Shown here piece after piece: positions 8,636 through 36,676 of a stretch of 64,000 nucleotides of DNA. Position numbers and translations under genes: made by a program. Source of the DNA: Escherichia coli (GTDB lineage Bacteria; Pseudomonadota; Gammaproteobacteria; Enterobacterales; Enterobacteriaceae); assembly GCF_003334335.1 (NCBI RefSeq), contig NZ_QOWQ01000013.1; one strand, 5' to 3'. Position 1 is the first letter of the stretch, and every line of letters begins with the position of its first letter. The notes beneath the pieces are model-generated. The model did not search any database. It was not told the origin of the DNA and saw only the letters and a program-made list of their open reading frames with translations.

Positions 8636-8822
8636 AGTACATCCTTGCAGAATCAGGTAGATGTTTTTCGGCTACTATAACACTACCAAAATAGGCGAAC
8701 ACGTTAGAAATGAGTCAGTTGCTGTGACCGTGGTCATTGCCCGGAAAGGTACAGAAAGCTAAGATGAGATGTTATGGGCCTTAAATATTTGGACAGGCCC
8801 GCACAGCAATGGATTAATAACA

Positions 8823-11800
8823 ATGATGAATAAATCCAATTTTGAATTCCTGAAGGGCGTCAACGACTTCACTTATGCCATCGCCTGTGCGGCGGAAAAT
8901 AACTACCCGGATGATCCCAACACGACGCTGATTAAAATGCGTATGTTTGGCGAAGCCACAGCGAAACATCTTGGTCTGTTACTCAACATCCCCCCTTGTG
9001 AGAATCAACACGATCTCCTGCGCGAACTCGGCAAAATCGCCTTCGTTGATGACAACATCCTCTCTGTATTCCACAAATTACGCCGCATTGGTAACCAGGC
9101 GGTGCACGAATATCATAACGATCTCGACGATGCCCAGATGTGTCTGCGGCTCGGGTTCCGCCTGGCTGTCTGGTACTACCGTCTGGTCACCAAAGATTAT
9201 GACTTCCCGGTGCCGGTGTTTGTGTTGCCGGAACGTGGCAAAAACCTCTATTACCAGGAAGTGCTGACGCTAAAACAACAGCTTGAACAGCAGGCGCGAG
9301 AAAAAGCGCAGACTCAGGCAGAAGTCGAAGCGCAACAGCAGAAGCTGGTTGCCCTGAACGGCTATATCGCCATTCTGGAAGGCAAACAGCAGGAAACAGA
9401 AGCGCAAACCCAGGCTCGCCTTGCGGCGCTGGAAGCACAGCTTGCCGAGAAGAACGCGGAACTGGCAAAACAGACCGAACAGGAACGTAAGGCTTACCAC
9501 AAAGAAATTACCGATCAGGCCATCAAGCGCACACTCAACCTTAGCGAAGAAGAGAGTCGCTTCCTGATTGACGCGCAACTGCGTAAAGCAGGCTGGCAGG
9601 CCGATAGCAAAACCCTGCGCTTCTCCAAAGGCGCGCGCCCGGAACCCGGCGTCAATAAAGCCATTGCCGAATGGCCGACCGGGAAAGATGAAACGGGTAA
9701 TCAGGGCTTTGCGGATTATGTGCTGTTTGTCGGCCTCAAGCCCATCGCGGTGGTAGAGGCGAAACGTAAAAATATCGACGTTCCCGGCAAGCTCAATGAG
9801 TCGTATCGCTACAGCAAATGCTTCGATAATGGCTTCCTGCGGGAAACCTTGCTTGAGCATTACTCGCCGGATGAAGTGCATGAAGCGGTGCCGGAGTATG
9901 AAACCAGCTGGCAGGACACCAGCGGCCAACAACGGTTTAAAATCCCCTTCTGCTACTCGACCAACGGGCGCGAATACCGCGCAGCAATGAAAACTAAAAG
10001 CGGCATCTGGTATCGCGACGTGCGTGATACCCGTAATATGTCGAAAGCCTTACCCGAGTGGCATCGCCCGGAAGAGCTGCTGGAAATGCTCGGCAGTGAA
10101 CCGCAAAAACAGAATCAGTGGTTTGCCGATAACCCTGGCATGAGCGAGCTGGGCCTGCGTTATTATCAGGAAGATGCCGTCCGCGCGGTTGAAAAGGCAA
10201 TCGTCAAGGGTCAACAAGAGATCCTGCTGGCGATGGCGACCGGTACCGGTAAAACCCGTACGGCAATCGCCATGATGTTCCGCCTGATCCAGTCCCAGCG
10301 TTTTAAACGCATTCTCTTCCTTGTCGACCGCCGTTCTCTTGGCGAGCAGGCGCTGGGGGCGTTTGAAGATACGCGTATTAACGGCGACACTTTCAACAGC
10401 ATTTTCGACATTAAAGGGCTGACGGATAAATTCCCCGAAGACAGCACCAAAATTCACGTTGCCACCGTACAGTCGCTGGTGAAACGCACCCTGCAATCAG
10501 ATGAACCGATGCCGGTGGCCCGTTACGACTGTATCGTCGTCGATGAAGCGCATCGCGGCTATATTCTCGATAAAGAGCAGACCGAAGGCGAACTGCAGTT
10601 TCGCAGCCAGCTGGATTATGTCTCTGCCTACCGTCGCATTCTCGATCACTTCGATGCGGTAAAAATCGCCCTCACCGCCACCCCGGCGCTGCATACTGTG
10701 CAGATTTTCGGCGAGCCGGTTTACCGTTATACCTACCGTACCGCGGTTATCGACGGTTTTCTGATCGACCAGGATCCGCCTATTCAGATCATCACCCGCA
10801 ACGCGCAGGAGGGGGTTTATCTCTCCAAAGGCGAGCAGGTAGAGCGCATCAGCCCGCAGGGAGAAGTGATCAACGACACCCTGGAAGACGATCAGGATTT
10901 TGAGGTCGCCGACTTTAACCGTGGCCTGGTGATCCCGGCGTTTAACCGCGCCGTCTGTAACGAACTCACCAATTATCTTGACCCGACCGGGTCACAAAAA
11001 ACGCTGGTCTTCTGCGTCACTAATGCCCATGCCGATATGGTGGTGGAAGAGCTGCGTGCCGCGTTCAAGAAAAAGTATCCGCAACTGGAGCACGACGCGA
11101 TCATCAAGATCACCGGTGATGCCGATAAAGACGCGCGCAAAGTGCAGACCATGATCACCCGCTTCAATAAAGAGCGGTTGCCCAATATCGTGGTGACCGT
11201 CGACCTGCTGACGACCGGCGTCGATATTCCGTCGATCTGTAATATCGTGTTCCTGCGTAAAGTACGCAGCCGCATTCTGTACGAACAGATGAAAGGCCGC
11301 GCCACGCGCTTATGCCCGGAGGTGAATAAAACTAGCTTTAAGATTTTTGACTGTGTCGATATCTACAGCACGCTGGAGAGCGTCGACACCATGCGTCCGG
11401 TGGTGGTGCGCCCGAAGGTGGAACTGCAAACGCTGGTCAACGAAATTACCGATTCAGAAACCTATAAAATCACCGAAGCGGATGGCCGCAGTTTTGCCGA
11501 GCACAGCCATGAACAACTGGTGGCGAAGCTCCAGCGCATCATCGGCCTGGCCACGTTTAACCGTGACCGCAGCGAAACGATAGATAAACAGGTGCGTCGT
11601 CTGGATGAGCTATGCCAGGACGCGGCGGGGGTGAACTTTAACGGCTTCGCCTCGCGTCTGCGGGAAAAAGGACCGCACTGGAGCGCCGAAGTCTTTAACA
11701 AACTGCCTGGCTTTATCGCCCGTCTGGAAAAGCTGAAAACCGATATCAACAATCTGAATGATGCGCCGATCTTCCTCGATATCGACGATGAAGTGGTGAG

Positions 11801-12335
11801 TGTAAAATCGCTGTACGGTGATTACGACACACCGCAGGATTTCCTCGAAGCCTTTGACTCGCTGGTGCAACGTTCCCCGAACGCGCAACCGGCATTGCAG
11901 GCGGTGATCAATCGCCCGCGCGATCTCACCCGTAAAGGGCTGGTCGAGCTACAGGAGTGGTTTGACCGCCAGCACTTTGAGGAATCTTCCCTGCGCAAAG
12001 CATGGAAAGAGACGCGCAATGAAGATATCGCCGCCCGGCTGATTGGTCATATTCGCCGCGCTGCGGTGGGCGATGCGCTGAAACCGTTTGAGGAACGTGT
12101 CGATCACGCGCTGACGCGTATCAAGGGCGAAAACGACTGGAGCAGCGAGCAATTAAGCTGGCTCGATCGTTTAGCGCAGGCGCTGAAAGAGAAAGTGGTG
12201 CTCGACGACGATGTCTTCAAAACCGGCAACTTCCACCGTCGCGGCGGGAAGGCGATGCTGCAAAGAACCTTTGACGATAATCTCGATACCCTGCTGGGCA
12301 AATTCAGCGATTACATCTGGGACGAGCTCGCCTGA
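8823..12335 (+). CDS. hsdR: Type I restriction enzyme R subunit HsdR (EcoKI family, IA)
   Basis: ORF 8769..12335; recalled EcoKI N-terminus MMNKSNFEFLKG gives start 8823 (1170 aa); helicase motifs GTGKT and DEAH visible. Confidence 0.95.
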   Translation: MMNKSNFEFLKGVNDFTYAIACAAENNYPDDPNTTLIKMRMFGEATAKHLGLLLNIPPCENQHDLLRELGKIAFVDDNILSVFHKLRRIGNQAVHEYHNDLDDAQMCLRLGFRLAVWYYRLVTKDYDFPVPVFVLPERGKNLYYQEVLTLKQQLEQQAREKAQTQAEVEAQQQKLVALNGYIAILEGKQQETEAQTQARLAALEAQLAEKNAELAKQTEQERKAYHKEITDQAIKRTLNLSEEESRFLIDAQLRKAGWQADSKTLRFSKGARPEPGVNKAIAEWPTGKDETGNQGFADYVLFVGLKPIAVVEAKRKNIDVPGKLNESYRYSKCFDNGFLRETLLEHYSPDEVHEAVPEYETSWQDTSGQQRFKIPFCYSTNGREYRAAMKTKSGIWYRDVRDTRNMSKALPEWHRPEELLEMLGSEPQKQNQWFADNPGMSELGLRYYQEDAVRAVEKAIVKGQQEILLAMATGTGKTRTAIAMMFRLIQSQRFKRILFLVDRRSLGEQALGAFEDTRINGDTFNSIFDIKGLTDKFPEDSTKIHVATVQSLVKRTLQSDEPMPVARYDCIVVDEAHRGYILDKEQTEGELQFRSQLDYVSAYRRILDHFDAVKIALTATPALHTVQIFGEPVYRYTYRTAVIDGFLIDQDPPIQIITRNAQEGVYLSKGEQVERISPQGEVINDTLEDDQDFEVADFNRGLVIPAFNRAVCNELTNYLDPTGSQKTLVFCVTNAHADMVVEELRAAFKKKYPQLEHDAIIKITGDADKDARKVQTMITRFNKERLPNIVVTVDLLTTGVDIPSICNIVFLRKVRSRILYEQMKGRATRLCPEVNKTSFKIFDCVDIYSTLESVDTMRPVVVRPKVELQTLVNEITDSETYKITEADGRSFAEHSHEQLVAKLQRIIGLATFNRDRSETIDKQVRRLDELCQDAAGVNFNGFASRLREKGPHWSAEVFNKLPGFIARLEKLKTDINNLNDAPIFLDIDDEVVSVKSLYGDYDTPQDFLEAFDSLVQRSPNAQPALQAVINRPRDLTRKGLVELQEWFDRQHFEESSLRKAWKETRNEDIAARLIGHIRRAAVGDALKPFEERVDHALTRIKGENDWSSEQLSWLDRLAQALKEKVVLDDDVFKTGNFHRRGGKAMLQRTFDDNLDTLLGKFSDYIWDELA

Positions 12336-12411: not shown

Positions 12412-14001
12412 ATGAACAATAACGATCTGGTCGCGAAGCTGTGGAAGCTGTGCGACAACCTGCGCGATGGCGGCGTTTCCTATCAAAACTATGTCAATGA
12501 ACTCGCCTCGCTGCTGTTTTTGAAAATGTGTAAAGAGACCGGGCAGGAAGCGGAATACCTGCCGGAAGGCTACCGCTGGGATGACCTGAAATCCCGCATC
12601 GGCCAGGAGCAGTTGCAGTTCTACCGTAACCTGCTGGTACATCTGGGCGCCGACAATCAAAAGCTGGTGCAGGCGGTGTTCCAGAACGTCAACACCACCA
12701 TTACCCAGCCAAAACAGTTGACCGAACTGGTCAGCAATATGGATTCACTGGACTGGTACAACGGTGCGCACGGTAAGTCGCGCGATGACTTCGGCGATAT
12801 GTACGAAGGGTTGTTGCAGAAGAACGCGAACGAAACCAAGTCTGGCGCGGGCCAGTACTTCACCCCGCGTCCGCTGATTAAAACCATTATTCATCTGCTG
12901 AAACCGCAGCCGCGTGAAGTAGTGCAGGACCCGGCAGCAGGTACAGCGGGCTTTTTGATTGAAGCCGACCGCTACGTTAAGTCGCAAACCAATGATCTGG
13001 ACGACCTTGATGGCGACACGCAGGATTTCCAGATCCACCGCGCGTTTATCGGCCTCGAACTGGTGCCTGGCACCCGTCGTCTGGCGCTGATGAACTGCCT
13101 GCTGCACGATATTGAAGGCAACCTCGACCACGGCGGCGCAATCCGTCTGGGCAACACCCTGGGTAGCGATGGTGAAAACCTGCCAAAGGCGCATATTGTC
13201 GCCACTAACCCGCCGTTTGGCAGCGCCGCAGGCACCAACATTACCCGCACCTTTGTCCACCCGACCAGCAACAAACAGTTGTGCTTTATGCAGCATATTA
13301 TCGAAACGCTGCATCCCGGCGGTCGTGCGGCGGTGGTGGTGCCGGATAACGTGCTGTTTGAAGGCGGCAAAGGCACCGACATCCGTCGTGACCTGATGGA
13401 TAAGTGTCATCTGCACACCATTCTGCGTCTGCCGACCGGTATTTTTTACGCGCAGGGCGTGAAAACCAACGTGCTGTTCTTTACCAAAGGGACGGTGGCA
13501 AATCCGCATCAGGATAAGAACTGTACTGATGACGTGTGGGTGTATGACCTGCGGACCAATATGCCGAGCTTCGGCAAGCGCACGCCGTTTACCGACGAGC
13601 ATTTGCAGCCGTTTGAGCGCGTATATGGCGAAAACCCGCACGGCTTAAGCCCGCGCACGGAAGGGGAATGGAGTTTTAACGCCGAAGAGACGGAAGTTGC
13701 CGACAGCGAAGAGAACAAAAATACCGATCAGCATCTGGCTACCAGCCGCTGGCGCAAGTTCAGCCGCGAGTGGATCCGCACCGCGAAATCCGATTCGCTG
13801 GATATCTCCTGGTTAAAAGATAAAGACAGTATTGATGCTGACAGCCTGCCGGAGCCGGATGTATTAACGGCAGAAGCGATGGGCGAGCTGGTACAGGCAT
13901 TGGGTGAACTGGATGCGCTGATGCGTGAACTGGGGGCGAGCGATGAGGCGGATGCGCAGCGTCAATTGCTGGAAGAAGCGTTTGGTGGGGTGAAGGAATG
14001 A
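12412..14001 (+). CDS. hsdM: Type I RM N6-adenine DNA methyltransferase subunit HsdM
   Basis: 529-aa ORF; NPPF catalytic motif (ATNPPFGSAAG) and AdoMet-binding region; 4-nt ATGA overlap with hsdS. Confidence 0.95.
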   Translation: MNNNDLVAKLWKLCDNLRDGGVSYQNYVNELASLLFLKMCKETGQEAEYLPEGYRWDDLKSRIGQEQLQFYRNLLVHLGADNQKLVQAVFQNVNTTITQPKQLTELVSNMDSLDWYNGAHGKSRDDFGDMYEGLLQKNANETKSGAGQYFTPRPLIKTIIHLLKPQPREVVQDPAAGTAGFLIEADRYVKSQTNDLDDLDGDTQDFQIHRAFIGLELVPGTRRLALMNCLLHDIEGNLDHGGAIRLGNTLGSDGENLPKAHIVATNPPFGSAAGTNITRTFVHPTSNKQLCFMQHIIETLHPGGRAAVVVPDNVLFEGGKGTDIRRDLMDKCHLHTILRLPTGIFYAQGVKTNVLFFTKGTVANPHQDKNCTDDVWVYDLRTNMPSFGKRTPFTDEHLQPFERVYGENPHGLSPRTEGEWSFNAEETEVADSEENKNTDQHLATSRWRKFSREWIRTAKSDSLDISWLKDKDSIDADSLPEPDVLTAEAMGELVQALGELDALMRELGASDEADAQRQLLEEAFGGVKE

Positions 14002-15347
14002 GTGCGGGGAAATTGCCGGAGGGGTGGGTTGAAACCTACCTTTCTGAAATATGTAGTAAACCACAATATGGTTATACAACTAAGTCGAGCTTTACAGGTA
14101 ATGTAAAATTTTTAAGAACTACAGATATTACTAAAGGTACTGTGGATTGGTCCACTGTACCTTATTGTTTGCAAAATCCTGATGATATACTTAAATATCA
14201 GCTTCAAGATCGAGATATTGTTATATCCCGGGCTGGTTCCGTAGGTTTTAGTTTTTTAGTAAAAAACCCACCGAATAATGCTGTCTTTGCTTCGTACCTG
14301 ATCAGATTCAAACCTTTTGATAATATTTCAGAGCTTTACTTGAAGCGTTTTTTAGAGTCCGGCAACTATTGGGTTCAGCTTGCCTCTATGTCGGCTGGAA
14401 ATGCATTACAAAATGTAAATGCTCAAAAATTATCCACGCTTATAGTACCAATTCCTCCACTTGCCGAACAAAAAATCATCGCTGAAAAACTCGATACGCT
14501 GCTGGCGCAGGTAGAGAGCACCAAAGCACGTCTTGAGCAAATCCCACAAATCCTGAAACGTTTTCGTCAGGCGGTGCTATCTAGTGCTGTTAGCGGTAAG
14601 TTAATTGACAAAAGCTTCGAAAATAAATTAGAAAAGCTCAATTCGTTTGTATCTATAGATATTGGTAATGCGTTCAAAAGCTCAGAGTTTAGTGATGAAG
14701 GCGTTCCATTACTCCGAGGACAAAATATAGAACCCGGAGCATTACGTTGGGATGACACAAAAAAATTCCCAATAGATAAACTTCAAAAATATTCTCATTT
14801 ATTTATTAATGAGGGCGATATTATATTAGCAATGGATCGCCCAATAATATCAAGCGGGTTAAAAATAGCTAAAGCCAAAAAAAGTGATCTTCCTTGCGTT
14901 CTGGTTCAACGAGTTGCCAGATTTAAAGATTTCGAAAATCTAATTCCTGACTATCTGTATTTGTTATTGAATGATGTGTCTTTTATTAATTATATTCAAC
15001 CAAATCAGACTGGTAGCGACATTCCGCATATCAGTGGAAAACAAATTTTAAACTTTGAGTGTAATGTCCCCTCTATCCCCGAACAACGCGAAATCGTTCG
15101 CCGCGTCGAGCAACTCTTCGCCTACGCCGACACTATAGAAAAACAGGTTAACAACGCCTTAGCCCGCGTCAACAACCTGACGCAATCCATCCTGGCAAAA
15201 GCGTTCCGTGGTGAGCTCACCGCCCAGTGGCGGGCCGAAAACCCGGAATTAATCAGCGGAGAAAACAGCGCCGCCGCGTTGCTGGAGAAAATCAAAGCTG
15301 AATGCGCAGCCAGCGGGGGTAAAAAAGCCTCGAGTAAAAAATCCTGA
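13998..15347 (+). CDS. hsdS: Type I RM specificity subunit HsdS (family IA conserved regions, distinct target-recognition domains)
   Basis: 449-aa ORF; N-terminus MSAGKLPEGW as in the EcoKI family; two AT-rich variable TRDs (about 14040-14460 and 14570-15070) separated by conserved LAEQKIIAEKLD...; conserved C-terminal IPEQREIV... Confidence 0.9.
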   Translation: MSAGKLPEGWVETYLSEICSKPQYGYTTKSSFTGNVKFLRTTDITKGTVDWSTVPYCLQNPDDILKYQLQDRDIVISRAGSVGFSFLVKNPPNNAVFASYLIRFKPFDNISELYLKRFLESGNYWVQLASMSAGNALQNVNAQKLSTLIVPIPPLAEQKIIAEKLDTLLAQVESTKARLEQIPQILKRFRQAVLSSAVSGKLIDKSFENKLEKLNSFVSIDIGNAFKSSEFSDEGVPLLRGQNIEPGALRWDDTKKFPIDKLQKYSHLFINEGDIILAMDRPIISSGLKIAKAKKSDLPCVLVQRVARFKDFENLIPDYLYLLLNDVSFINYIQPNQTGSDIPHISGKQILNFECNVPSIPEQREIVRRVEQLFAYADTIEKQVNNALARVNNLTQSILAKAFRGELTAQWRAENPELISGENSAAALLEKIKAECAASGGKKASSKKS

Positions 15348-15360
15348 TCATTATTTTCTG

Positions 15361-15386
15361 GCGCACCTTTCCGGTGCGCTTTTTAT
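15361..15386 (+). terminator. Rho-independent terminator after hsdS
   Basis: gcgcacc tttcc ggtgcgc stem-loop followed by tttttatt. Confidence 0.7.
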
Positions 15387-15481
15387 TATTTTACACCAAT
15401 CATAACCCACACAAATATATTTAAATCATTCCAGAAATTGCCTATTTTATTCTATTTTTAGCTGGACTTTCCCTGTATTTA

Positions 15482-15497
15482 CTGATGATATATCCAG
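15482..15497 (+). promoter_or_regulatory. Candidate LexA (SOS) box upstream of symE
   Basis: CTG-atgatatatc-CAG fits the CTG-N10-CAG SOS-box core with AT-rich spacer, about 80 bp upstream of the symE start. Confidence 0.45.
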
Positions 15498-15539
15498 GTA
15501 TTTAGCGCGGTGCGGATGTGCGCCAACACACCCGCACCG

Positions 15540-15620
15540 CTAATCACAATCACTATTTATAGGGAATAGCAGTTATGACTGACACGCATTCTATTGCACA
15601 ACCGTTCGAAGCAGAAGTCT
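15540..15620 (-). ncRNA. symR: SymR antisense sRNA (type I antitoxin) overlapping the symE 5' end; coordinates approximate
   Basis: Inferred from the known symE/symR arrangement; exact ends cannot be set from sequence alone. Confidence 0.3.
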
Positions 15621-15916
15621 CCCCGGCAAATAACCGTCAATTAACCGTGAGTTATGCGAGTCGCTACCCGGATTACAGCCGTATTCCCGCCATCACCCTG
15701 AAAGGTCAGTGGCTGGAAACCGCCGGTTTTGCTACCGGCACGGCGGTAGATGTCAAAGTGATGGAAGGCTGTATTGTCCTCACCGCCCAACCACCTGCCG
15801 CCGAAGAGAGCGAACTGATGCAGTCACTGCGCCAGGTGTGCAAACTGTCGGCGCGTAAACAAAAGCAGGTGCAGGAATTTATTGAGGTGATTGCCGGTAA
15901 ACGAAAAGTCGCCTGA
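15575..15916 (+). CDS. symE: SymE SOS-induced toxin-like protein (AbrB/MazE fold, RNA cleavage)
   Basis: 113-aa [37 protein letters not shown]... recognised as SymE. Confidence 0.9.
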
Positions 15917-15924
15917 TACATTGA

Positions 15925-15948
15925 CCCGGTAGCGCCAGTGCTACCGGG
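15925..15948. terminator. Hairpin between convergent symE and the DUF262/DUF1524 gene (probable bidirectional terminator)
   Basis: cccggtag cgccagtg ctaccggg stem-loop with T-rich tract on the plus side. Confidence 0.5.
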
Positions 15949-15962
15949 TATTATTCGCCACG

Positions 15963-18056
15963 TTATACCAACGCGCTCTCCATCTGTTTTTCAAATGCCT
16001 GACGGATTAATCCCATAATGTAAGGAAGTTGTGCGAGGTCGCTGAAACCAATTTCTACATCGCCATTGCCCCAGCGCCCAACATTTGTCACATCTTTGGC
16101 AATACCTTTCGGATCGACCAGTTCATGAAACTGCATATTAAGCGACAATCGCAGTCGGCTTTTTTGCGGCACAACATCAACAAAGTTCGTTTCCGCTTTA
16201 AACGCAATATAGAGCTTCAATACTTCCTGCGTGATCCCTGCGTCCAGGCGCATAACTTCATCGCGAAGATGATCGAATAACTCCCGACTATGCGAACCAT
16301 CAGCAAGAAAAGGAAAATCATTCAGGCTGTAATTGGTTTTGTTTTCAGGCTTCCCCCGATAAACAGCTAAAACCTCTTCAGGAAGAGCAGGCGCTTGCCA
16401 GACCTGAATTGCAAGCTCTGCCAGACGATCGGCTCGGGCGTGAATGGCGGCTTCATCCCATTTTTCGCACTGTCCAAGACCGATATTCAAATAGAGCGGG
16501 CTATGTTTAAAGCCGTCTTCAATATCGCGTTTTTCCGCGAAAGGTCTGTCACTGTAGCGGGAGTTATAGCGCGTTAATGTGAGATTCCCCAACGTATGCA
16601 ACAGTTCTTTATGAATGCGTTGCCAGTCACTTCCCAGCTCTTCACGCCATTTAGCCGACAAATTTTCGTTCTGCGGCATAATATGTTCAATCGTAAACTC
16701 TTCCACGCGCTCTCTGCGTTTATCGTTTTCCAGTCGTCGTAACCAGTAACTGCGACTGCGGAAGTTATAGAGATCGCGAACTTTTAATTCCCGTTTAAAT
16801 TCATCATCGTTGGGGAAACGACGATATGAAGGTAGATTCAGAAAATGTACCTGAATACTTTCCAGATAATTTTCTTTATTAATGACCTTATAAAAAGTAG
16901 CAAACGTCTTGTTAAGAGAATTTGTCGGAATCGCACATACTGCACGGCGGAAAACATAAGATTCAATTAAACGAATTATGTTCAGGAAATCTTCTTGAGA
17001 CAAAACGCCATTTTTATAGTCATGATAAAGCGCCAGTAAGAAAGGATACGCCACATCGACCTTTAACTCGCGCAAATCCTGAAAAGCCGTAGCAAGCGAT
17101 TTGTCACTTTCTTTTCCCAATGCCATTGCACAGTAATACTCCGCGTAGATGTGAATATCTTCAACCAGCCGATCTACGCCTTTTTCAGCAACACTCTGGC
17201 TGCGGGCATGGAGTTTAAATGCCTCATAGACTTCATCTGTCCGAGGGATCTCCCCTGTTTTTACCGTCAGATAATGACGCATAAAACTGTCAAAATATTC
17301 GCTGTAACCTTGCTGACCAAACGCGACTTCCATTGGACGCCAGTGATCTTCATACAACCGGGTTTGATGCTCTGGTTCGAGGCCCATCAGAATAAAATTG
17401 CGCACCAGATCGGCCTGACTTAACGCCTTACCGGTGGAGTTCATACTTTCAAAAATCAGTTGCGGATTATCCTGACCACGATTAAGCGCCACATCGACAA
17501 TTAATAATTTTGCTAACCCACGACATAAGGGAATCAAATCATCCCCGAGTTTGGCAATTTGTTCATCAAAGAAAGTAAAGTTTTCCATTATTCGATGGGA
17601 ATAGTTTTCTGGCATTGGTCTTTGTTTTATTAACGCCAGCAAACTGTCTTTATCAGTCTCGGTCAGCAGTAATTTAAATCCTTTCTCGCCGGACTCATAA
17701 GGATTGAGTAAATAATAATTACGCAATTTCATTGCTGAAAAGCCATCAAAAACTTCGTCTTCGCCAAGATGACGCGATAAAGCCTCAATCAGCAACATTG
17801 CGGTCGTCAGCCTTTGTTGACCATCAATGACCAGTAACGGAGAAATACCAGAAACCTGATACAACCCCTGCTCAATATAAACAACCGAACCGATAAAATG
17901 CGCTGATATATCGTCACGCTTTCCGGCACGAATGATGTCGTCCCAAAGTTGCCGACATTGTTGTTCTGTCCATGAATAAGTCCGTTGATAAATGGGAATA
18001 ACAAACTGCTGCGAACGTTTTAAAAAATCGAGTAGGCGGGCTTCTGTAGCTTTCAT
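15963..18056 (-). CDS. DUF262 (ParB-like NTPase) + DUF1524 (HNH/His-Me finger) fusion protein; GmrSD-like putative Type IV modification-dependent restriction endonuclease
   Basis: 697-aa ORF; N-terminal DGQQR motif (LVIDGQQRLTT) typical of DUF262; C-terminal region with EHIMPQN...LGNLTL His-Me finger-like motif typical of DUF1524; extra about 140-aa C-terminal extension; sits where mcrBC lies in K-12. Confidence 0.75.
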   Translation of the reverse strand: MKATEARLLDFLKRSQQFVIPIYQRTYSWTEQQCRQLWDDIIRAGKRDDISAHFIGSVVYIEQGLYQVSGISPLLVIDGQQRLTTAMLLIEALSRHLGEDEVFDGFSAMKLRNYYLLNPYESGEKGFKLLLTETDKDSLLALIKQRPMPENYSHRIMENFTFFDEQIAKLGDDLIPLCRGLAKLLIVDVALNRGQDNPQLIFESMNSTGKALSQADLVRNFILMGLEPEHQTRLYEDHWRPMEVAFGQQGYSEYFDSFMRHYLTVKTGEIPRTDEVYEAFKLHARSQSVAEKGVDRLVEDIHIYAEYYCAMALGKESDKSLATAFQDLRELKVDVAYPFLLALYHDYKNGVLSQEDFLNIIRLIESYVFRRAVCAIPTNSLNKTFATFYKVINKENYLESIQVHFLNLPSYRRFPNDDEFKRELKVRDLYNFRSRSYWLRRLENDKRRERVEEFTIEHIMPQNENLSAKWREELGSDWQRIHKELLHTLGNLTLTRYNSRYSDRPFAEKRDIEDGFKHSPLYLNIGLGQCEKWDEAAIHARADRLAELAIQVWQAPALPEEVLAVYRGKPENKTNYSLNDFPFLADGSHSRELFDHLRDEVMRLDAGITQEVLKLYIAFKAETNFVDVVPQKSRLRLSLNMQFHELVDPKGIAKDVTNVGRWGNGDVEIGFSDLAQLPYIMGLIRQAFEKQMESALV

Positions 18057-18152
18057 TCTGACGTCTTTCCGTGAAGCGATGATTTCGCAATAATAACCAC
18101 TTCCTTGTGGAGGTTATAGAGAAATCCTGTTTATCCGCGACGAACTGCCCCC

Positions 18153-31435: not shown

Positions 31436-34400
31436 ATGGCTTCAACAAATGCGCATCAAATAAAAAATAATGATCAAAACTCTTTATGTGGTCTGGGTGA
31501 CAAAATACGCCGCCTGACCGCCGGAGTTTGTTTATTTACACAAATTTTTTTCCCCGTCATGGCGACGGCACAAAATGTGGTACACGCTAAGCCTCAGACG
31601 ACAGTTTCATCTCCGTCCCCTCTAATAGAAAATAATACTGTGCCTTACACGCTTGGTGCGCTGGAATCAGCGCAAAGCGTTGCTGATCGATTCGGTATTT
31701 CACTGGAGGAGCTTCGTCGTCTTAATCAGTTCCGTACTTTTGCTCGCGGCTTTGATAACGTGCGCCAGGGTGAAGAGCTGGATGTTCCGGCAACAACCTT
31801 GCAGAAAAGTCATGAGCAACAAAATGCCGTACCGCCTGCGAATGGCGAAAACACGCTGGAGAATCAAATAGCCAGCACTTCGCAGCGAGTTGGCACCCTG
31901 CTTTCACAAGATATGAATAGTGAGCAGGCCAGCGGCATGGCGCGTGGTTGGGCGTCTTCAGAAGCCTCAGGCGCGATGACTGATTGGTTAAATAACTTTG
32001 GCACTGCGAAAATCTCTCTGGGTGTGGATGAAGATTTCAGCCTGAAAAATTCGCAATTCGACTTCCTGCATCCGTGGTATGACACACCCGATTATCTGCT
32101 CTTCAGCCAGCATACCCTTCACCGAACAGACGATCGTACCCAGATCAACACCGGTTTGGGCTGGCGTCATTTCACCCCCAGCTGGATGTCAGGCATCAAC
32201 CTGTTTTTTGACCACGACCTGAGCCGCTATCACTCCCGCGCGGGGCTTGGCGCAGAATACTGGCGTGATTATCTGAAGTTGAGCAGCAACGCTTATATCG
32301 GCCTGACCGGCTGGCGTAGCGCACCGGAATTGGATAATGACTACGAAGCCCGCCCGGCCAACGGCTGGGATTTACGCGCGGAAGGCTGGTTACCAGCCTG
32401 GCCACAACTGGGTGGAAAACTGGTCTATGAACAATACTATGGTGATGAAGTGGCGCTGTTTGACAAGAATGATCGCCAAAGTAATCCCCATGCTATTACC
32501 GCGGGCCTCAACTATACCCCCTTCCCGCTTCTGACTCTCAGTGCAGAACAGCGTCAGGGGAAGCAAGGTGAAAATGACACACGTTTTGCCGTTGATCTGA
32601 CCTGGCAACCCAGCAGTTCAATGCAGAAACAGCTTAACCCGGACGAAGTGGCCGGACGGCGCAGTCTGGCCGGTAGTCGTTATGACCTGATTGATCGCAA
32701 CAACAACATCGTTCTGGAATATCGCAAGAAAGAGCTGATTCGCCTGAGTCTGCTGGATCCGGTGAAAGGAAAGTCTGGAGAAATAAAACCGCTGGTTTCC
32801 TCGATACAGACCAAATATGCCCTGAAAGGCTATAACATCGAAGCCGCTGCGCTGGAAGCTGCCGGAGGTAAAGTCAGCACGTCTGGAAAAGATATCACGG
32901 TCACGCTGCCAGGTTACCGCTTCACTAACACTCCAGAAACCGATAATACATGGTCGATAGACGTTACCGCCGAGGATGTAAAAGGGAACCTGTCACGTCA
33001 TGAACAAAGCATGGTCGTCATTCAGGCTCCGACATTAAGCCAGAAAGATTCTCTGTTATCCGTTAATCCGCTAACCGTAGCTGCAGATAAAAAATCGACG
33101 ACCACATTGACCGTTACTGCGCACGATTCCGACGGAACTCCGGTGCCGGGGCTGGCGCTGCAAACCCGCAGTGAAGGCGTTCAGGATATCACCCTGTCTG
33201 ACTGGACAGATAACGGTGATGGTAGTTACACACAGATGCTGACCGCCGGAACGACATCAGGTTCAGTAACACTGACGCCGCAAATTAACGGTGAGAGTGC
33301 GGTAAAAGAATCCATTGTCGTTAATATCGTCCCTGTTGTCTCATCCCGCGACCATTCATCAATAACAATAGATAACGTATCGTATTATGCCGGAGACGAC
33401 ATCAAGGTTAGGGTGGAACTGAAAGACGACAGCAATCAACCGGTTGCATATCAAAAAGAGGAATTGGTAAAAGCCGTTACTGTCGAAAACAGCAAACCTG
33501 GCGCCACGATTGTCTGGCACGAAGAGCAGCCTGGCGTTTATACCGCGAATTATCCGGCCCATAAGCAAGGGACAGCACTAAGGGCACAACTTAGCCTTCA
33601 CAACTGGAATGCTCCACTGCAATCGCATATTTATAACATTGAGGCAAACCAGAATAAGGCTCGCGTCGCCACATTATCAGCGACGAATAATGACGTTTAC
33701 GCCGATAAAAAGACATTTAATACCCTCACGATCAACATCACTGATGAGAGTGATAATCCCCTGACAAATCATCAGGTCACCTTTAAGAATGAAAAAGGAA
33801 GCGCGGAGTTTGTCGAACCGCCGCAGCAAAATACGGATGCATATGGTGTTGCCACAATCAACATGGTAAGTCAGGTTGCGGAAGAAAATACGATTAGCGC
33901 CACGCTGCCAAATGGTTTCTCACAACGGATAATTGCGAAATTCGTTAGCGATTCGAGTACGCCAAAATTCAAACAACTGGTTGCCGATCCAGATACCATT
34001 ATTGCTGGCAACAGCCAGGGCAGTACTCTGACCGCCACCGTCACAGACTTTCATAACAACCCATTAAAAGATATGAAAGTGAATTTTGTGGCACCTGGTG
34101 GTTCGCAACTGGACAACACGACCGCCACAACAGACCAGTCCGGTATTGTGCGAGTGCACCTGACCAGTTCAAAAGCTGGTAGCTATTCCGTCGATGCCTC
34201 GCTTGAGGCGGATAAAAATATTCACCAGTCGGTCACGATCACCGTGGTCCCAAACAGGGAACAATCGGTAATGACCTTAAATGCCGGGTCAGGCAGTGCG
34301 ATCGCTAACAATACAAATACCGTTATCCTGACAGCCAGTGTGAAAGATGTTTATGGACACCCGTTGCCGGATGAGGATGTGAAATTTACCTTGCTAGCCT

Positions 34401-36676
34401 CTATGACCGGGAACTTCACGCTAAGTAGTGAAAGCGCCCGCACCGATGCAAACGGCGATGCCGTGGTCACATTGCGTGGCACAAAAGCGGGTGAGTTTAC
34501 AGTTACGGCGACGCTGACCAGAAATAATACCGTTGCTCATCAGCAAGTCACTTTTATTGGGGATACAAACAGCGCGCAGCTCCAGCCGCTGACTGCCTCA
34601 TTAAATACCATTGTTGCGGGTAACAGTACGGGGAGTACCCTGACTGCAACGATCCTGGACGCTTACCAAAATCCGCTTAAAGACCAGCTGGTCACTTTCC
34701 AGAGTAACGATGTCACTCTAAGTGGAACAGAAGTCACCACCAATACACTGGGTCAGGCGACGGTAACAATGACCAGCAATATTGCCGGGCAACATAACGT
34801 CGTGGTGAGCCGGAAAGCGCAAGCCTCCGATAATAAAACGTTTAGTTTATCAGTGCTGCCGGATGAAAGTTCGGCGAAGGTAATAAGTATAACCGGAGCC
34901 GAAAAAACGATAACGGTTGGCGAAAACATCACGCTACGGATACTCGTCCAGGACGCGTTTAACAATGTAATAGCGGGTCAACGCGTCAGATTAAGTGCGC
35001 AGCCAACAGCTAACATTACGATAGGCGATACGGCTTACACTGATAATAACGGTTACGCGTACGTTAACCTTCTCAGCACCCAGCCTGGGGTTTATCAGGT
35101 GACGGCAACGCTGGACAATAACAGTAGTAGTAAGGTTGACGTGAATGTGGCAAATGGCAAGCTCGAGTTAACATCATCGAAGCCAGAAACCACGGTCCAT
35201 AACAGTGAAGGTATTACGCTGACCGCAACGGCGAGAAATGCTCGGGATGAATTAATGCCTGGACAAATTATCACCTTTAGCGTAACGCCTGAAGGTGCAA
35301 CGCTAAGCAATACAGGGGAAGTCCTTACTGACCAGTATGGTCAGGCCAAAGTGACGCTGACCAGTGACAAAGTGAATGTCTATACCGTTACGGCCACAAT
35401 GGGCAAAGATGTTCCCGTTCAGAGCCAGGTAACGGTTGCGGTTAAGGCAGATGCTAAAACGGCACATGTTGTGAGCGTCGTGGCCTCTCCTGACACCATC
35501 ACCGCCGACGGCGTTGATAGCAGCACCATCACTTCACGAGTAGAAGATGATTACGGATTCCCGGTTGAAGGTGTCGATGTTCGTTACGCCTTAGACACCA
35601 AAGGTCGCCCGGTAGTTAATATTCCAACTACGCGTACCGATCAGTCCGGGCAAGTCACGGCGACAATAACCAGTACATTGGCAGAAACCTTAACGGTCAA
35701 TGTGCAAGTTCCTGGTACAGCCAACCAATCCGCAACCATTACCTTGATTGCCGACACGGCGGATGAAAGTAAGTCAATTTTGAAATCCGACGTTGGCACT
35801 CTGATGGCTGACTACCAGCATAGCGCGAAACTTACGCTAACATTGCAAGACAAGTACGGTAACCCGATAGTGACGTCTGATCATCTGGAATTTGTCCAGT
35901 CAGGTCCCTTCGTGAACTTTCTCAAGTTGAGTGATATTGATTACAGCCAAAGAAATTATGGCGAGTACACCGTGACTGTCACTGGCGGAAAAGAGGGAAC
36001 AGCGACTCTCATTCCCATGCTGAACGGGGTTCATCAGGCAAACTTAAGCGTATCGCTGAATCTCATCCGCTCGATAAAAGAAATGTCCGGTCATGTCACT
36101 GCAAACAACCATACCTTCTCCACGGCTAAATTCCCGAGCGAAGGTTTTGCAGGAGCGTATTACACACTCAACAATGATAACTTTGAAGCGGGTAAAACCG
36201 TTGATGATTATATGTTTTCAAGTTCACAGAGTTGGGTGTCGGTCGATGCTTCAGGTAAGGTTTCTTTCGCAAATATCGGCGATCAAACGTCAGTCACAAT
36301 AAGCGCTGTTCCCCGACAAGGAGGTACAACCTACCAGACCTTAATTAAGCTGAAAGGCTGGTGGGTAAATAATGGAAATCAAACCAATATTTGGCTAGCT
36401 GCCAATGCGCTCTGTCATGCGAAAAATGATGGATATAATCTTCCTGGCATCACACATTTGACGTCTGGCGAAAACCAACGCACGCAGGGATCTCTCTATG
36501 GTGAATGGGGGAACGTTGGAGCGTTTTCCAGTAATTCGCAATTTACACAAGGTGCTTACTGGACAAATGAATCTGATGATTACAATAGGCATTACTATGT
36601 GCAGATGCTAACCGGTATGACCGGAAGCGACGCTGATTCCAGCCCCCAACTGACCGCCTGCCGTAAATCACTTTAA
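31436..36676 (+). CDS. Inverse autotransporter adhesin of the intimin/invasin family (LysM, beta-barrel, multiple Big domains, C-terminal lectin-like domain)
   Basis: 1746-aa ORF; N-terminal LysM-like YTLGALESAQSVADRFGISLEELRRLNQF; intimin-type beta-domain (GLGWRHF...AEYW...GLNYTP); many Ig-like repeats of about 95-100 aa (TLTATV, VTVTAT patterns); Cys-containing C-terminal domain. Confidence 0.8.
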   Translation: MASTNAHQIKNNDQNSLCGLGDKIRRLTAGVCLFTQIFFPVMATAQNVVHAKPQTTVSSPSPLIENNTVPYTLGALESAQSVADRFGISLEELRRLNQFRTFARGFDNVRQGEELDVPATTLQKSHEQQNAVPPANGENTLENQIASTSQRVGTLLSQDMNSEQASGMARGWASSEASGAMTDWLNNFGTAKISLGVDEDFSLKNSQFDFLHPWYDTPDYLLFSQHTLHRTDDRTQINTGLGWRHFTPSWMSGINLFFDHDLSRYHSRAGLGAEYWRDYLKLSSNAYIGLTGWRSAPELDNDYEARPANGWDLRAEGWLPAWPQLGGKLVYEQYYGDEVALFDKNDRQSNPHAITAGLNYTPFPLLTLSAEQRQGKQGENDTRFAVDLTWQPSSSMQKQLNPDEVAGRRSLAGSRYDLIDRNNNIVLEYRKKELIRLSLLDPVKGKSGEIKPLVSSIQTKYALKGYNIEAAALEAAGGKVSTSGKDITVTLPGYRFTNTPETDNTWSIDVTAEDVKGNLSRHEQSMVVIQAPTLSQKDSLLSVNPLTVAADKKSTTTLTVTAHDSDGTPVPGLALQTRSEGVQDITLSDWTDNGDGSYTQMLTAGTTSGSVTLTPQINGESAVKESIVVNIVPVVSSRDHSSITIDNVSYYAGDDIKVRVELKDDSNQPVAYQKEELVKAVTVENSKPGATIVWHEEQPGVYTANYPAHKQGTALRAQLSLHNWNAPLQSHIYNIEANQNKARVATLSATNNDVYADKKTFNTLTINITDESDNPLTNHQVTFKNEKGSAEFVEPPQQNTDAYGVATINMVSQVAEENTISATLPNGFSQRIIAKFVSDSSTPKFKQLVADPDTIIAGNSQGSTLTATVTDFHNNPLKDMKVNFVAPGGSQLDNTTATTDQSGIVRVHLTSSKAGSYSVDASLEADKNIHQSVTITVVPNREQSVMTLNAGSGSAIANNTNTVILTASVKDVYGHPLPDEDVKFTLLASMTGNFTLSSESARTDANGDAVVTLRGTKAGEFTVTATLTRNNTVAHQQVTFIGDTNSAQLQPLTASLNTIVAGNSTGSTLTATILDAYQNPLKDQLVTFQSNDVTLSGTEVTTNTLGQATVTMTSNIAGQHNVVVSRKAQASDNKTFSLSVLPDESSAKVISITGAEKTITVGENITLRILVQDAFNNVIAGQRVRLSAQPTANITIGDTAYTDNNGYAYVNLLSTQPGVYQVTATLDNNSSSKVDVNVANGKLELTSSKPETTVHNSEGITLTATARNARDELMPGQIITFSVTPEGATLSNTGEVLTDQYGQAKVTLTSDKVNVYTVTATMGKDVPVQSQVTVAVKADAKTAHVVSVVASPDTITADGVDSSTITSRVEDDYGFPVEGVDVRYALDTKGRPVVNIPTTRTDQSGQVTATITSTLAETLTVNVQVPGTANQSATITLIADTADESKSILKSDVGTLMADYQHSAKLTLTLQDKYGNPIVTSDHLEFVQSGPFVNFLKLSDIDYSQRNYGEYTVTVTGGKEGTATLIPMLNGVHQANLSVSLNLIRSIKEMSGHVTANNHTFSTAKFPSEGFAGAYYTLNNDNFEAGKTVDDYMFSSSQSWVSVDASGKVSFANIGDQTSVTISAVPRQGGTTYQTLIKLKGWWVNNGNQTNIWLAANALCHAKNDGYNLPGITHLTSGENQRTQGSLYGEWGNVGAFSSNSQFTQGAYWTNESDDYNRHYYVQMLTGMTGSDADSSPQLTACRKSL

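Follow-up and report, generated by a model that had tools for sequence, protein, structure and literature searches.

A probable symE/symR regulatory region, with a predicted LexA box and the antisense RNA SymR, downstream of the type I restriction gene hsdS in Escherichia coli

Positions 15482–15620 of the window, as we call the whole stretch of 64,000 nucleotides of E. coli DNA analysed here, very probably hold the sequences that regulate symE/symR, a type I toxin-antitoxin-like module already known from E. coli, with control exerted at two levels. Since every element described for K-12 is present, intact and conserved, we regard the locus as an ordinary copy of a well-characterised system that was already known. 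The region is a textbook case of layered control of an SOS-induced protein by LexA, an antisense RNA and Lon, and has little import beyond annotation. Sequence orthology, family membership, conservation and covariation were obtained directly in this work; LexA binding, SOS induction, expression of SymR and translational repression would carry over by analogy with the experiments done in K-12, and the exact −10 hexamer and transcription start of symE, like the −35 element of symR, are predicted from the sequence.

The genes and terminators that frame the region are the following.

8769–12335, plus strand: hsdR, an open reading frame (ORF) of the window
12412–14001, plus strand: hsdM, an ORF of the window
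13998–15347, plus strand: hsdS, an ORF of the window, with symE directly downstream
15360–15390, plus strand: intrinsic terminator of the hsdRMS unit, GGCGCACC-TTTCC-GGTGCGC and then TTTTTATTATT, from the terminator scan
15575–15916, plus strand: coding sequence of symE, 113 aa, from NF010128, PF08845 and BLASTP
15925–15948, no strand assigned: GC-rich 10-bp hairpin in the convergent intergenic region between symE and the GmrSD-like gene, fold −20.2 kcal/mol, z = −4.3
15963–18056, minus strand: ORF of 697 aa, convergent with symE

The locus is the ‘immigration control region’ of enteric bacteria, which lies between yjiA and yjiN (recent review). Elsewhere in the window, core genes share 99.3% identity with their counterparts in S88, ATCC 11775 and similar E. 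coli strains, which marks the DNA as part of an E. coli chromosome. A preliminary description of this DNA had placed symE immediately 3′ of hsdS, and the coordinates above bear this out. The hsd terminator, consisting of a hairpin at 15360–15380 plus a T-run, stands between hsdS and the symE promoter and is kept in K-12 and in a pig isolate. At the far end of symE, the hairpin at 15925–15948 is probably a bidirectional terminator that forms the 3′ boundary of the module, judging from its predicted fold; the terminator scan did not call it, the probable reason being that its stem runs into the T-rich tail. The 697-aa ORF beyond it is intact and occupies the place held by mcrBC in K-12, as is the case in many strains. 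It gave no match in the NCBIfam scan and is 96–98% identical to genes annotated as GmrSD/DUF262 restriction endonucleases. This GmrSD-like gene is broken by IS1 in the pig isolate and is present as two ORFs in O157:H7.

The first level of control is represented by one feature.

15480–15499, no strand assigned: predicted LexA (SOS) box, the 20-mer TACTGATGATATATCCAGGT, from a position weight matrix, orthology to K-12 and conservation

Its core, CTG-N10-CAG with an AT-rich spacer (CTGATGATATATCCAG), lies at 15482–15497 on the plus strand, which is where the 16-mer singled out in the preliminary description (ctgatgatatatccag) was located. The distance of about 80 bp to the symE start given there also holds, as the CAG ends 77 nt and the 20-mer 75 nt before the ATG at 15575. 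The bare pattern occurs 23 times in the 64-kb window as against 11.6 ± 3.7 times in shuffles, and we rejected this count as evidence because 23 matches with about 12 expected cannot discriminate the site. We used instead a symmetric matrix built from 18 LexA boxes of E. coli taken from a table in PMC3009722 and scanned both strands with it, a check that had been proposed for this site. The 20-mer scores 12.4 bits and is the top site on either strand of the window. The K-12 box (TACTGATGATATATACAGGT) scores 13.7 bits and the 18 training boxes score 12.8–28.1 bits, polB having the value of 12.8, so that the box in the window falls at the weak end of the range of published boxes, near polB and the symE box of K-12. 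The A of its CTGA half-site is absent from all 18 training boxes. A site of at least 12.4 bits turns up in 26% of random sequences of 64 kb and in 0.4% of shuffles of the 227-bp spacer between hsdS and symE. The matrix score alone is thus only modestly significant genome-wide, and the case for the box rests on orthology and conservation.

With regard to orthology, the window, K-12 and the pig isolate align without gaps across 301 bp, and the box is identical to the yjiW/symE box of K-12 at 19 of 20 positions, the exception being A to C at 15494, which turns ACAG into CCAG. The K-12 16-mer is listed as the LexA site of yjiW. On this alignment, the 20-mer is the positional ortholog of the K-12 box. 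In K-12, symE shows a 2.5-fold dependence on lexA (recent RNA-seq) and its box has a published heterology index (HI) of 7.9; the LexA site is described as overlapping the symE promoter (review). With regard to conservation, a protein-seeded scan using one genome per species gave 41 symE loci, 40 of which could be evaluated for the operator, from Escherichia, Pseudocitrobacter, Kosakonia, Pantoea, Citrobacter, Salmonella, Raoultella, Enterobacter, Chimaeribacter and other genera. In 38 of these 40 loci the best LexA-like site precedes the ATG by 73–80 nt. Across the 40, which span several genera, conservation of CTG and CAGG is 95% or higher and the spacer varies; Escherichia, Salmonella, Citrobacter, Pantoea, Kosakonia and Raoultella are among the genera in which the box is conserved. 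Orthology to the K-12 box, the published lexA dependence and this conservation across genera all point to control of symE by LexA, as had been suggested beforehand.

The same data bear on the idea that the CTG-N10-CAG sequence is a chance match with no role as an operator, symE being controlled by SymR and Lon alone. The excess of bare patterns in the window, the frequency of 12.4-bit sites in random sequence of this length and an empty promoter scan (see below) are what one would expect of such a coincidence. They have to be set against a box that is orthologous to an accepted LexA site, a CTG and a CAGG held at a set distance from the ATG in different genera, with a drifting spacer between them, and a score that very few shuffles of the intergenic spacer reach. 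We consider a chance match extremely improbable.

The substitution at 15494 deserves comment in its own right, as the operator allele used in all of the experiments, that of K-12, is the minority form in E. coli. Searched for as an exact 34-mer, the CCAG allele is found in 1,947 of 5,426 complete E. coli genomes and the K-12 form in 437, making the former about 4.5 times commoner; it is also common to E. albertii and E. whittamii. The C might weaken the operator relative to K-12, leading to leakier basal expression of symE and placing more of the load on SymR and Lon, which would be a quantitative difference between alleles within the same mechanism. In favour of a weaker operator, the matrix score drops from 13.7 bits in K-12 to 12.4 bits in the window, and a value resembling the heterology index, calculated on the 18-site matrix, rises from 7.9 to 9.4. 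However, CCAG is found in 7 of the 18 bona fide published boxes, including those of recN, dinI, uvrB and ruvA, and the prevalence of the C allele in E. coli together with its presence in E. albertii and E. whittamii argues that CCAG is the functional wild type. We therefore think a weakened operator unlikely.

Two further sequences were considered as LexA sites. A second half-site starting from CCCTGTATT (15472–15480) was rejected, having no CAG at N10 and a poor score. The second-best match to the matrix in the window, TATTGGGGATACAAACAGCG at 34555–34574 with 10.95 bits, lies inside an ORF of 1,746 aa (31436–36676) and is probably due to chance.

The position of the predicted box relative to transcription of symE depends on the following elements.

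15463–15468, plus strand: putative −35 element of symE, TGGACT, from conservation and the 17-bp spacing to TGATAT
15486–15491, plus strand: putative −10 element of symE, TGATAT, 17 bp after TGGACT and inside the LexA box
15499–15574, plus strand: 5′ untranslated leader of symE, the target of SymR; its start is predicted and approximate
15561–15565, plus strand: Shine-Dalgarno (SD) sequence of symE, AGGGA, from the sequence

The block containing the −35 element, CTGGACTT at 15462–15469, is 80–100% conserved per position across the 40 loci. An alternative −10 element, GATATA at 15487–15492, would have an 18-bp spacer and is likewise inside the box. With TGGACT and TGATAT as the hexamers, the LexA box would cover the −10 element and the likely transcription start. 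A consensus sigma-70 scan of 15300–16000 called no promoter on either strand. Both the symE and the symR promoter are weak in one hexamer and would therefore be missed at the thresholds of the scan, and their positions rest on conservation and on a published mutation. A passage in PMC7967276 gives the overlap of the SymR and symE transcripts as 76 bp, described there as the entire length of SymR, which would fit a transcription start for symE near 15498–15500. Among E. coli symE loci that stand behind different type I families, homology begins at about 15443, some 37 bp upstream of the box. With the cassette junction at this point, the symE promoter belongs to the portion that moves together with symE, and not to the hsd portion.

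The second level of control is encoded on the opposite strand.

15504–15580, minus strand: SymR, 77 nt with two hairpins, from Rfam RF01809
15593–15588, minus strand: −10 element of symR, TAGAAT, within codons 5–7 of symE and 7 nt upstream of the SymR 5′ end
15616–15611, minus strand: putative −35 element of symR, TTCTGC, 17 bp from the −10 element; TTCTGG in most relatives

The preliminary description expected SymR to run antisense across the symE start and left its ends unplaced. RF01809 matches here over its full length (model positions 1–77 of 77) with 94.3 bits against a gathering score of 61 and E = 1.7e-18, which fixes both ends by homology and, along with the intact −10 hexamer, argues for an antisense RNA where one had been expected. 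A match to the Rfam model Ref66, at 24.6 bits against a gathering score of 92, was discarded as noise. The 5′ end at 15580 lies 3 nt past the symE ATG, and the 3′ end, at 15504, comes within 4 nt of the LexA 20-mer. The RNA is complementary to the start codon (15575–15577), the SD sequence (15561–15565) and nearly the whole of the leader. Thus symR can be placed to the base in this DNA, though the RefSeq annotation of the four related E. coli loci that we inspected (L001, L002, L044 and L045) holds no symR ncRNA feature. Across the relatives, symR reaches the gathering score in 35 of 41 loci and is significant but below threshold in four more, and in every one of these 39 matching loci it ends at ATG+5.

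The promoter of symR has left its mark on the coding sequence of symE. Kawano et al. (2007, PMC1891008) described SymR as a 77-nt RNA with its promoter within the ORF and abolished it by changing CATTCT to CACTCC; the CATTCT that they mutated is intact in the window on the plus strand at 15587–15592. Third-codon positions of symE are 97–100% conserved in codons 5–8 as against 47–60% in codons 9–12, and those of codons 13–14 (xCA GAA) are 100% and 97% conserved. Such conservation of synonymous sites in codons 5–8 and 13–14 is the imprint expected of the −10 and −35 elements of symR. The putative −35, TTCTGC, is a weak match to TTGACA and was missed by the promoter scan. At the other end of the RNA, hairpin 2 is followed by no U-tract; CUAAAUACC stands there on the minus strand (15503–15480), so this is not a canonical intrinsic terminator and the formation of the SymR 3′ end is not explained by the sequence.

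The structure of SymR is itself conserved. It folds with a minimum free energy (MFE) of −40.1 kcal/mol (z = −5.9), and over 39 distinct sequences from Enterobacterales 92.3% of the pair cells hold standard pairs. Both sides have changed in 11 of the 29 pairs, including 8 of the 14 in hairpin 2; the resulting covariation score was reached by none of 500 shuffles, and controls slid along the alignment scored far lower. It could be asked whether these hairpins, in place of serving an antisense RNA, act mainly in the sense strand, that is in the leader of the symE mRNA, where they might for instance hide the ribosome binding site. Watson-Crick covariation is blind to strand, and the sense strand also beats its own shuffles (−29.5 kcal/mol, z = −4.6). 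The sense fold is nonetheless less stable than that of the antisense RNA, and of 1,127 pair cells 211 are G-U on the minus strand and become C-A on the sense strand, on which only 77.2% of the cells remain paired. The many G-U cells, with the lower pairing and stability of the sense strand, indicate that the selected structure fits an antisense RNA better than a leader. Moreover, the conserved promoter imprint in the ORF is spaced as required for minus-strand transcription beginning at 15580, and SymR was both detected and mutated away in the K-12 experiments. A main role in the sense strand is in our view distinctly unlikely, bearing in mind that the two roles are not mutually exclusive.

Taking SymR as an antisense RNA, the elements suggest the following scheme, which draws on the work in K-12. 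A LexA dimer on the operator at 15480–15499 would cover the −10 region and the start site of symE, so that symE would be transcribed only once DNA damage has triggered the RecA-stimulated self-cleavage of LexA. The promoter within the symE ORF (−10 at 15593–15588, −35 at 15616–15611) would drive transcription of SymR from 15580 to 15504. Being perfectly complementary to the start codon, the SD sequence and the leader of symE, SymR would pair with them and block ribosome binding, and this pairing would modestly lower the level of symE mRNA. In K-12, SymE rises about seven-fold when SymR is lost, and the mRNA responds less strongly (Kawano et al., 2007, PMC1891008). Lon degrades SymE in the same organism, and the controls by LexA, SymR and Lon are additive (PMC1891008).

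The closest comparison is naturally with symE/symR of K-12 itself (yjiW/ryjC; PMC1891008), which has the same order of hsdS and symE, a SymE that is 94% identical, a SymR that is likewise 77 nt long, starts and stops at equal distances from the ATG and has an identical −10 hexamer, and a LexA box in the same position with 19 of its 20 bases. The window differs from it by the single base in the box (ACAG in K-12, CCAG here), by four changes in the loop of hairpin 1 and the SD region (GGAG to GGGA), by one change through which SymR hairpin 2 has a G-C pair where K-12 shows an A-C mismatch, and by a GmrSD-like gene downstream in place of mcrBC. Among other SOS-controlled type I pairs of E. coli, tisB/istR-1 and dinQ/agrB are similar in combining repression of the toxin promoter through a LexA box with a small RNA that stops translation of the toxin. 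Their toxins are small membrane peptides, however, whereas SymE is a protein of 113 aa with an AbrB/MazE fold. Their RNAs come from genes next to that of the toxin and have limited complementarity, while SymR lies over the start codon as a true cis-antisense RNA. In hok/sok, as in symE/symR, translation of the toxin is blocked by an antisense RNA that is constitutive, encoded in cis and extends over the 5′ part of the mRNA; unlike symE/symR, hok/sok works by way of the overlapping mok frame and mRNA processing, and has no LexA operator.

The identity of the controlled protein is clear. SymE scores 229.4 bits against the NCBIfam equivalog NF010128 (cut-off 132) and matches Pfam PF08845 (SymE_toxin) at 8.5e-21, and by BLASTP 106 of its 113 residues are identical to those of K-12 SymE. 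It carries the SymE_toxin/AbrB-like domain and thereby resembles the DNA-binding proteins of the MazE/AbrB fold. What the protein does is a different matter. The annotation ‘endoribonuclease SymE’ follows the model of 2007 (Kawano et al., 2007, PMC1891008). In K-12, the toxicity of SymE and the prevention of its synthesis by the antisense RNA were shown by overexpression and with the symR promoter mutant. In the passage of PMC11894785 that reports Thompson et al. (2022), SymE lacks RNase activity, binds DNA non-specifically and condenses the nucleoid on overexpression, so that the type of toxicity is there revised from RNase to DNA binding. On that account the product controlled here may not be a classical RNase toxin, and its product name appears to lag behind the newer evidence for DNA binding.

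The restriction genes next door raise the question of whether the module has anything to do with them. The preliminary description suggested that it serves as a backup when restriction-modification is compromised. Both the alleviation of type I restriction and the induction of symE follow DNA damage, and a coupling of symE/symR to the adjacent type I system, by which the module would act when that system fails or is alleviated, could be read into the gene order. In E. coli symE follows three kinds of type I system, standing behind a type IA hsdS (the window and K-12), a type IB hsdS (O157:H7) and the hsdR of a system with M-S-R order (strain E302). A type I gene stands directly upstream in about 15–17 of the 40 species-level loci, a count that rests on tblastn with type IA Hsd queries, which misses other type I families, on NCBIfam scans of the upstream ORFs and on two annotated E. 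coli loci. More than half of the species-level loci nevertheless have no type I neighbour, and YjiA, Hcp, an RhtC-like exporter, tyrosine phenol-lyase, PspE and DdpX are among the unrelated neighbours found. In the window a terminator splits hsdS from symE, and the LexA-matrix scan found no LexA-like site upstream of hsdR or hsdM. That the neighbour is hsdS or hsdR by turns would be expected more of a shared hotspot than of a specific partnership, and genes of this sort are known to gather in this region, a defence island for which adjacency to type I genes has already been described (review). Finally, once the SOS response was induced, Kawano et al. found a symER deletion to be without phenotype. 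The suggestion of a backup thus finds no support, and we regard coupling of this kind as very unlikely.

A related conjecture takes the recurrent siting of symE/symR at the right-hand junctions of type I cassettes, which in E. coli are of three unrelated families, to reflect a functional link over and above a shared hotspot. By way of example, nucleoid-condensing SymE, induced in the SOS response, might shield unmodified chromosomal sites from the type I enzyme during the restriction alleviation that damage induces. As the end of SymR lies so close to the LexA 20-mer and has no U-tract, occupancy by LexA might, in the same conjecture, influence the ends of the symR transcript. We would give this little credence, certainly no more than the backup role; a link to restriction-modification would be interesting if true, and nothing here supports it.

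The hsdS product scores 558 bits, below the cut-off of 662 for the equivalog NF007278, and is just 42–45% identical to the HsdS proteins of K-12 and the pig isolate; among the complete E. coli genomes, none covers at least 80% of 13998–18100. This suggests that HsdS has an uncommon combination of target-recognition domains and hence a different specificity.

Several of the relatives call for separate mention. Two loci, from Franconibacter helveticus (L037) and ‘Enterobacter’ pulveris (L040), encode SymE homologs that are 58–60% identical and have much stronger LexA boxes, AGCTGTATATAATCACAGCA with 19.8 bits and AACTGTATATAATCACAGTA with 23.0 bits, about 100–109 nt upstream of symE. A search of both loci for symR gave no match even at E = 0.01, and from their sequences they look like a variant architecture with LexA control apparently without SymR. 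Two others (L005 and L008) are labelled ‘MAG: Bacillota bacterium’ and carry symE loci that resemble those of E. coli, preceded by type I restriction genes. Their SymE proteins are 92–95% identical and HsdM of L005 is 99% identical to that of the window; they are almost certainly mis-binned enterobacterial contigs. Lastly, two Citrobacter genomes each contain a pair of divergent symE/symR loci (L027 and L030 in Citrobacter sp. wls619, L025 and L033 in Citrobacter sp. On2M), the members of a pair lying 30–36 kb apart on one contig and carrying different variants of the LexA box.
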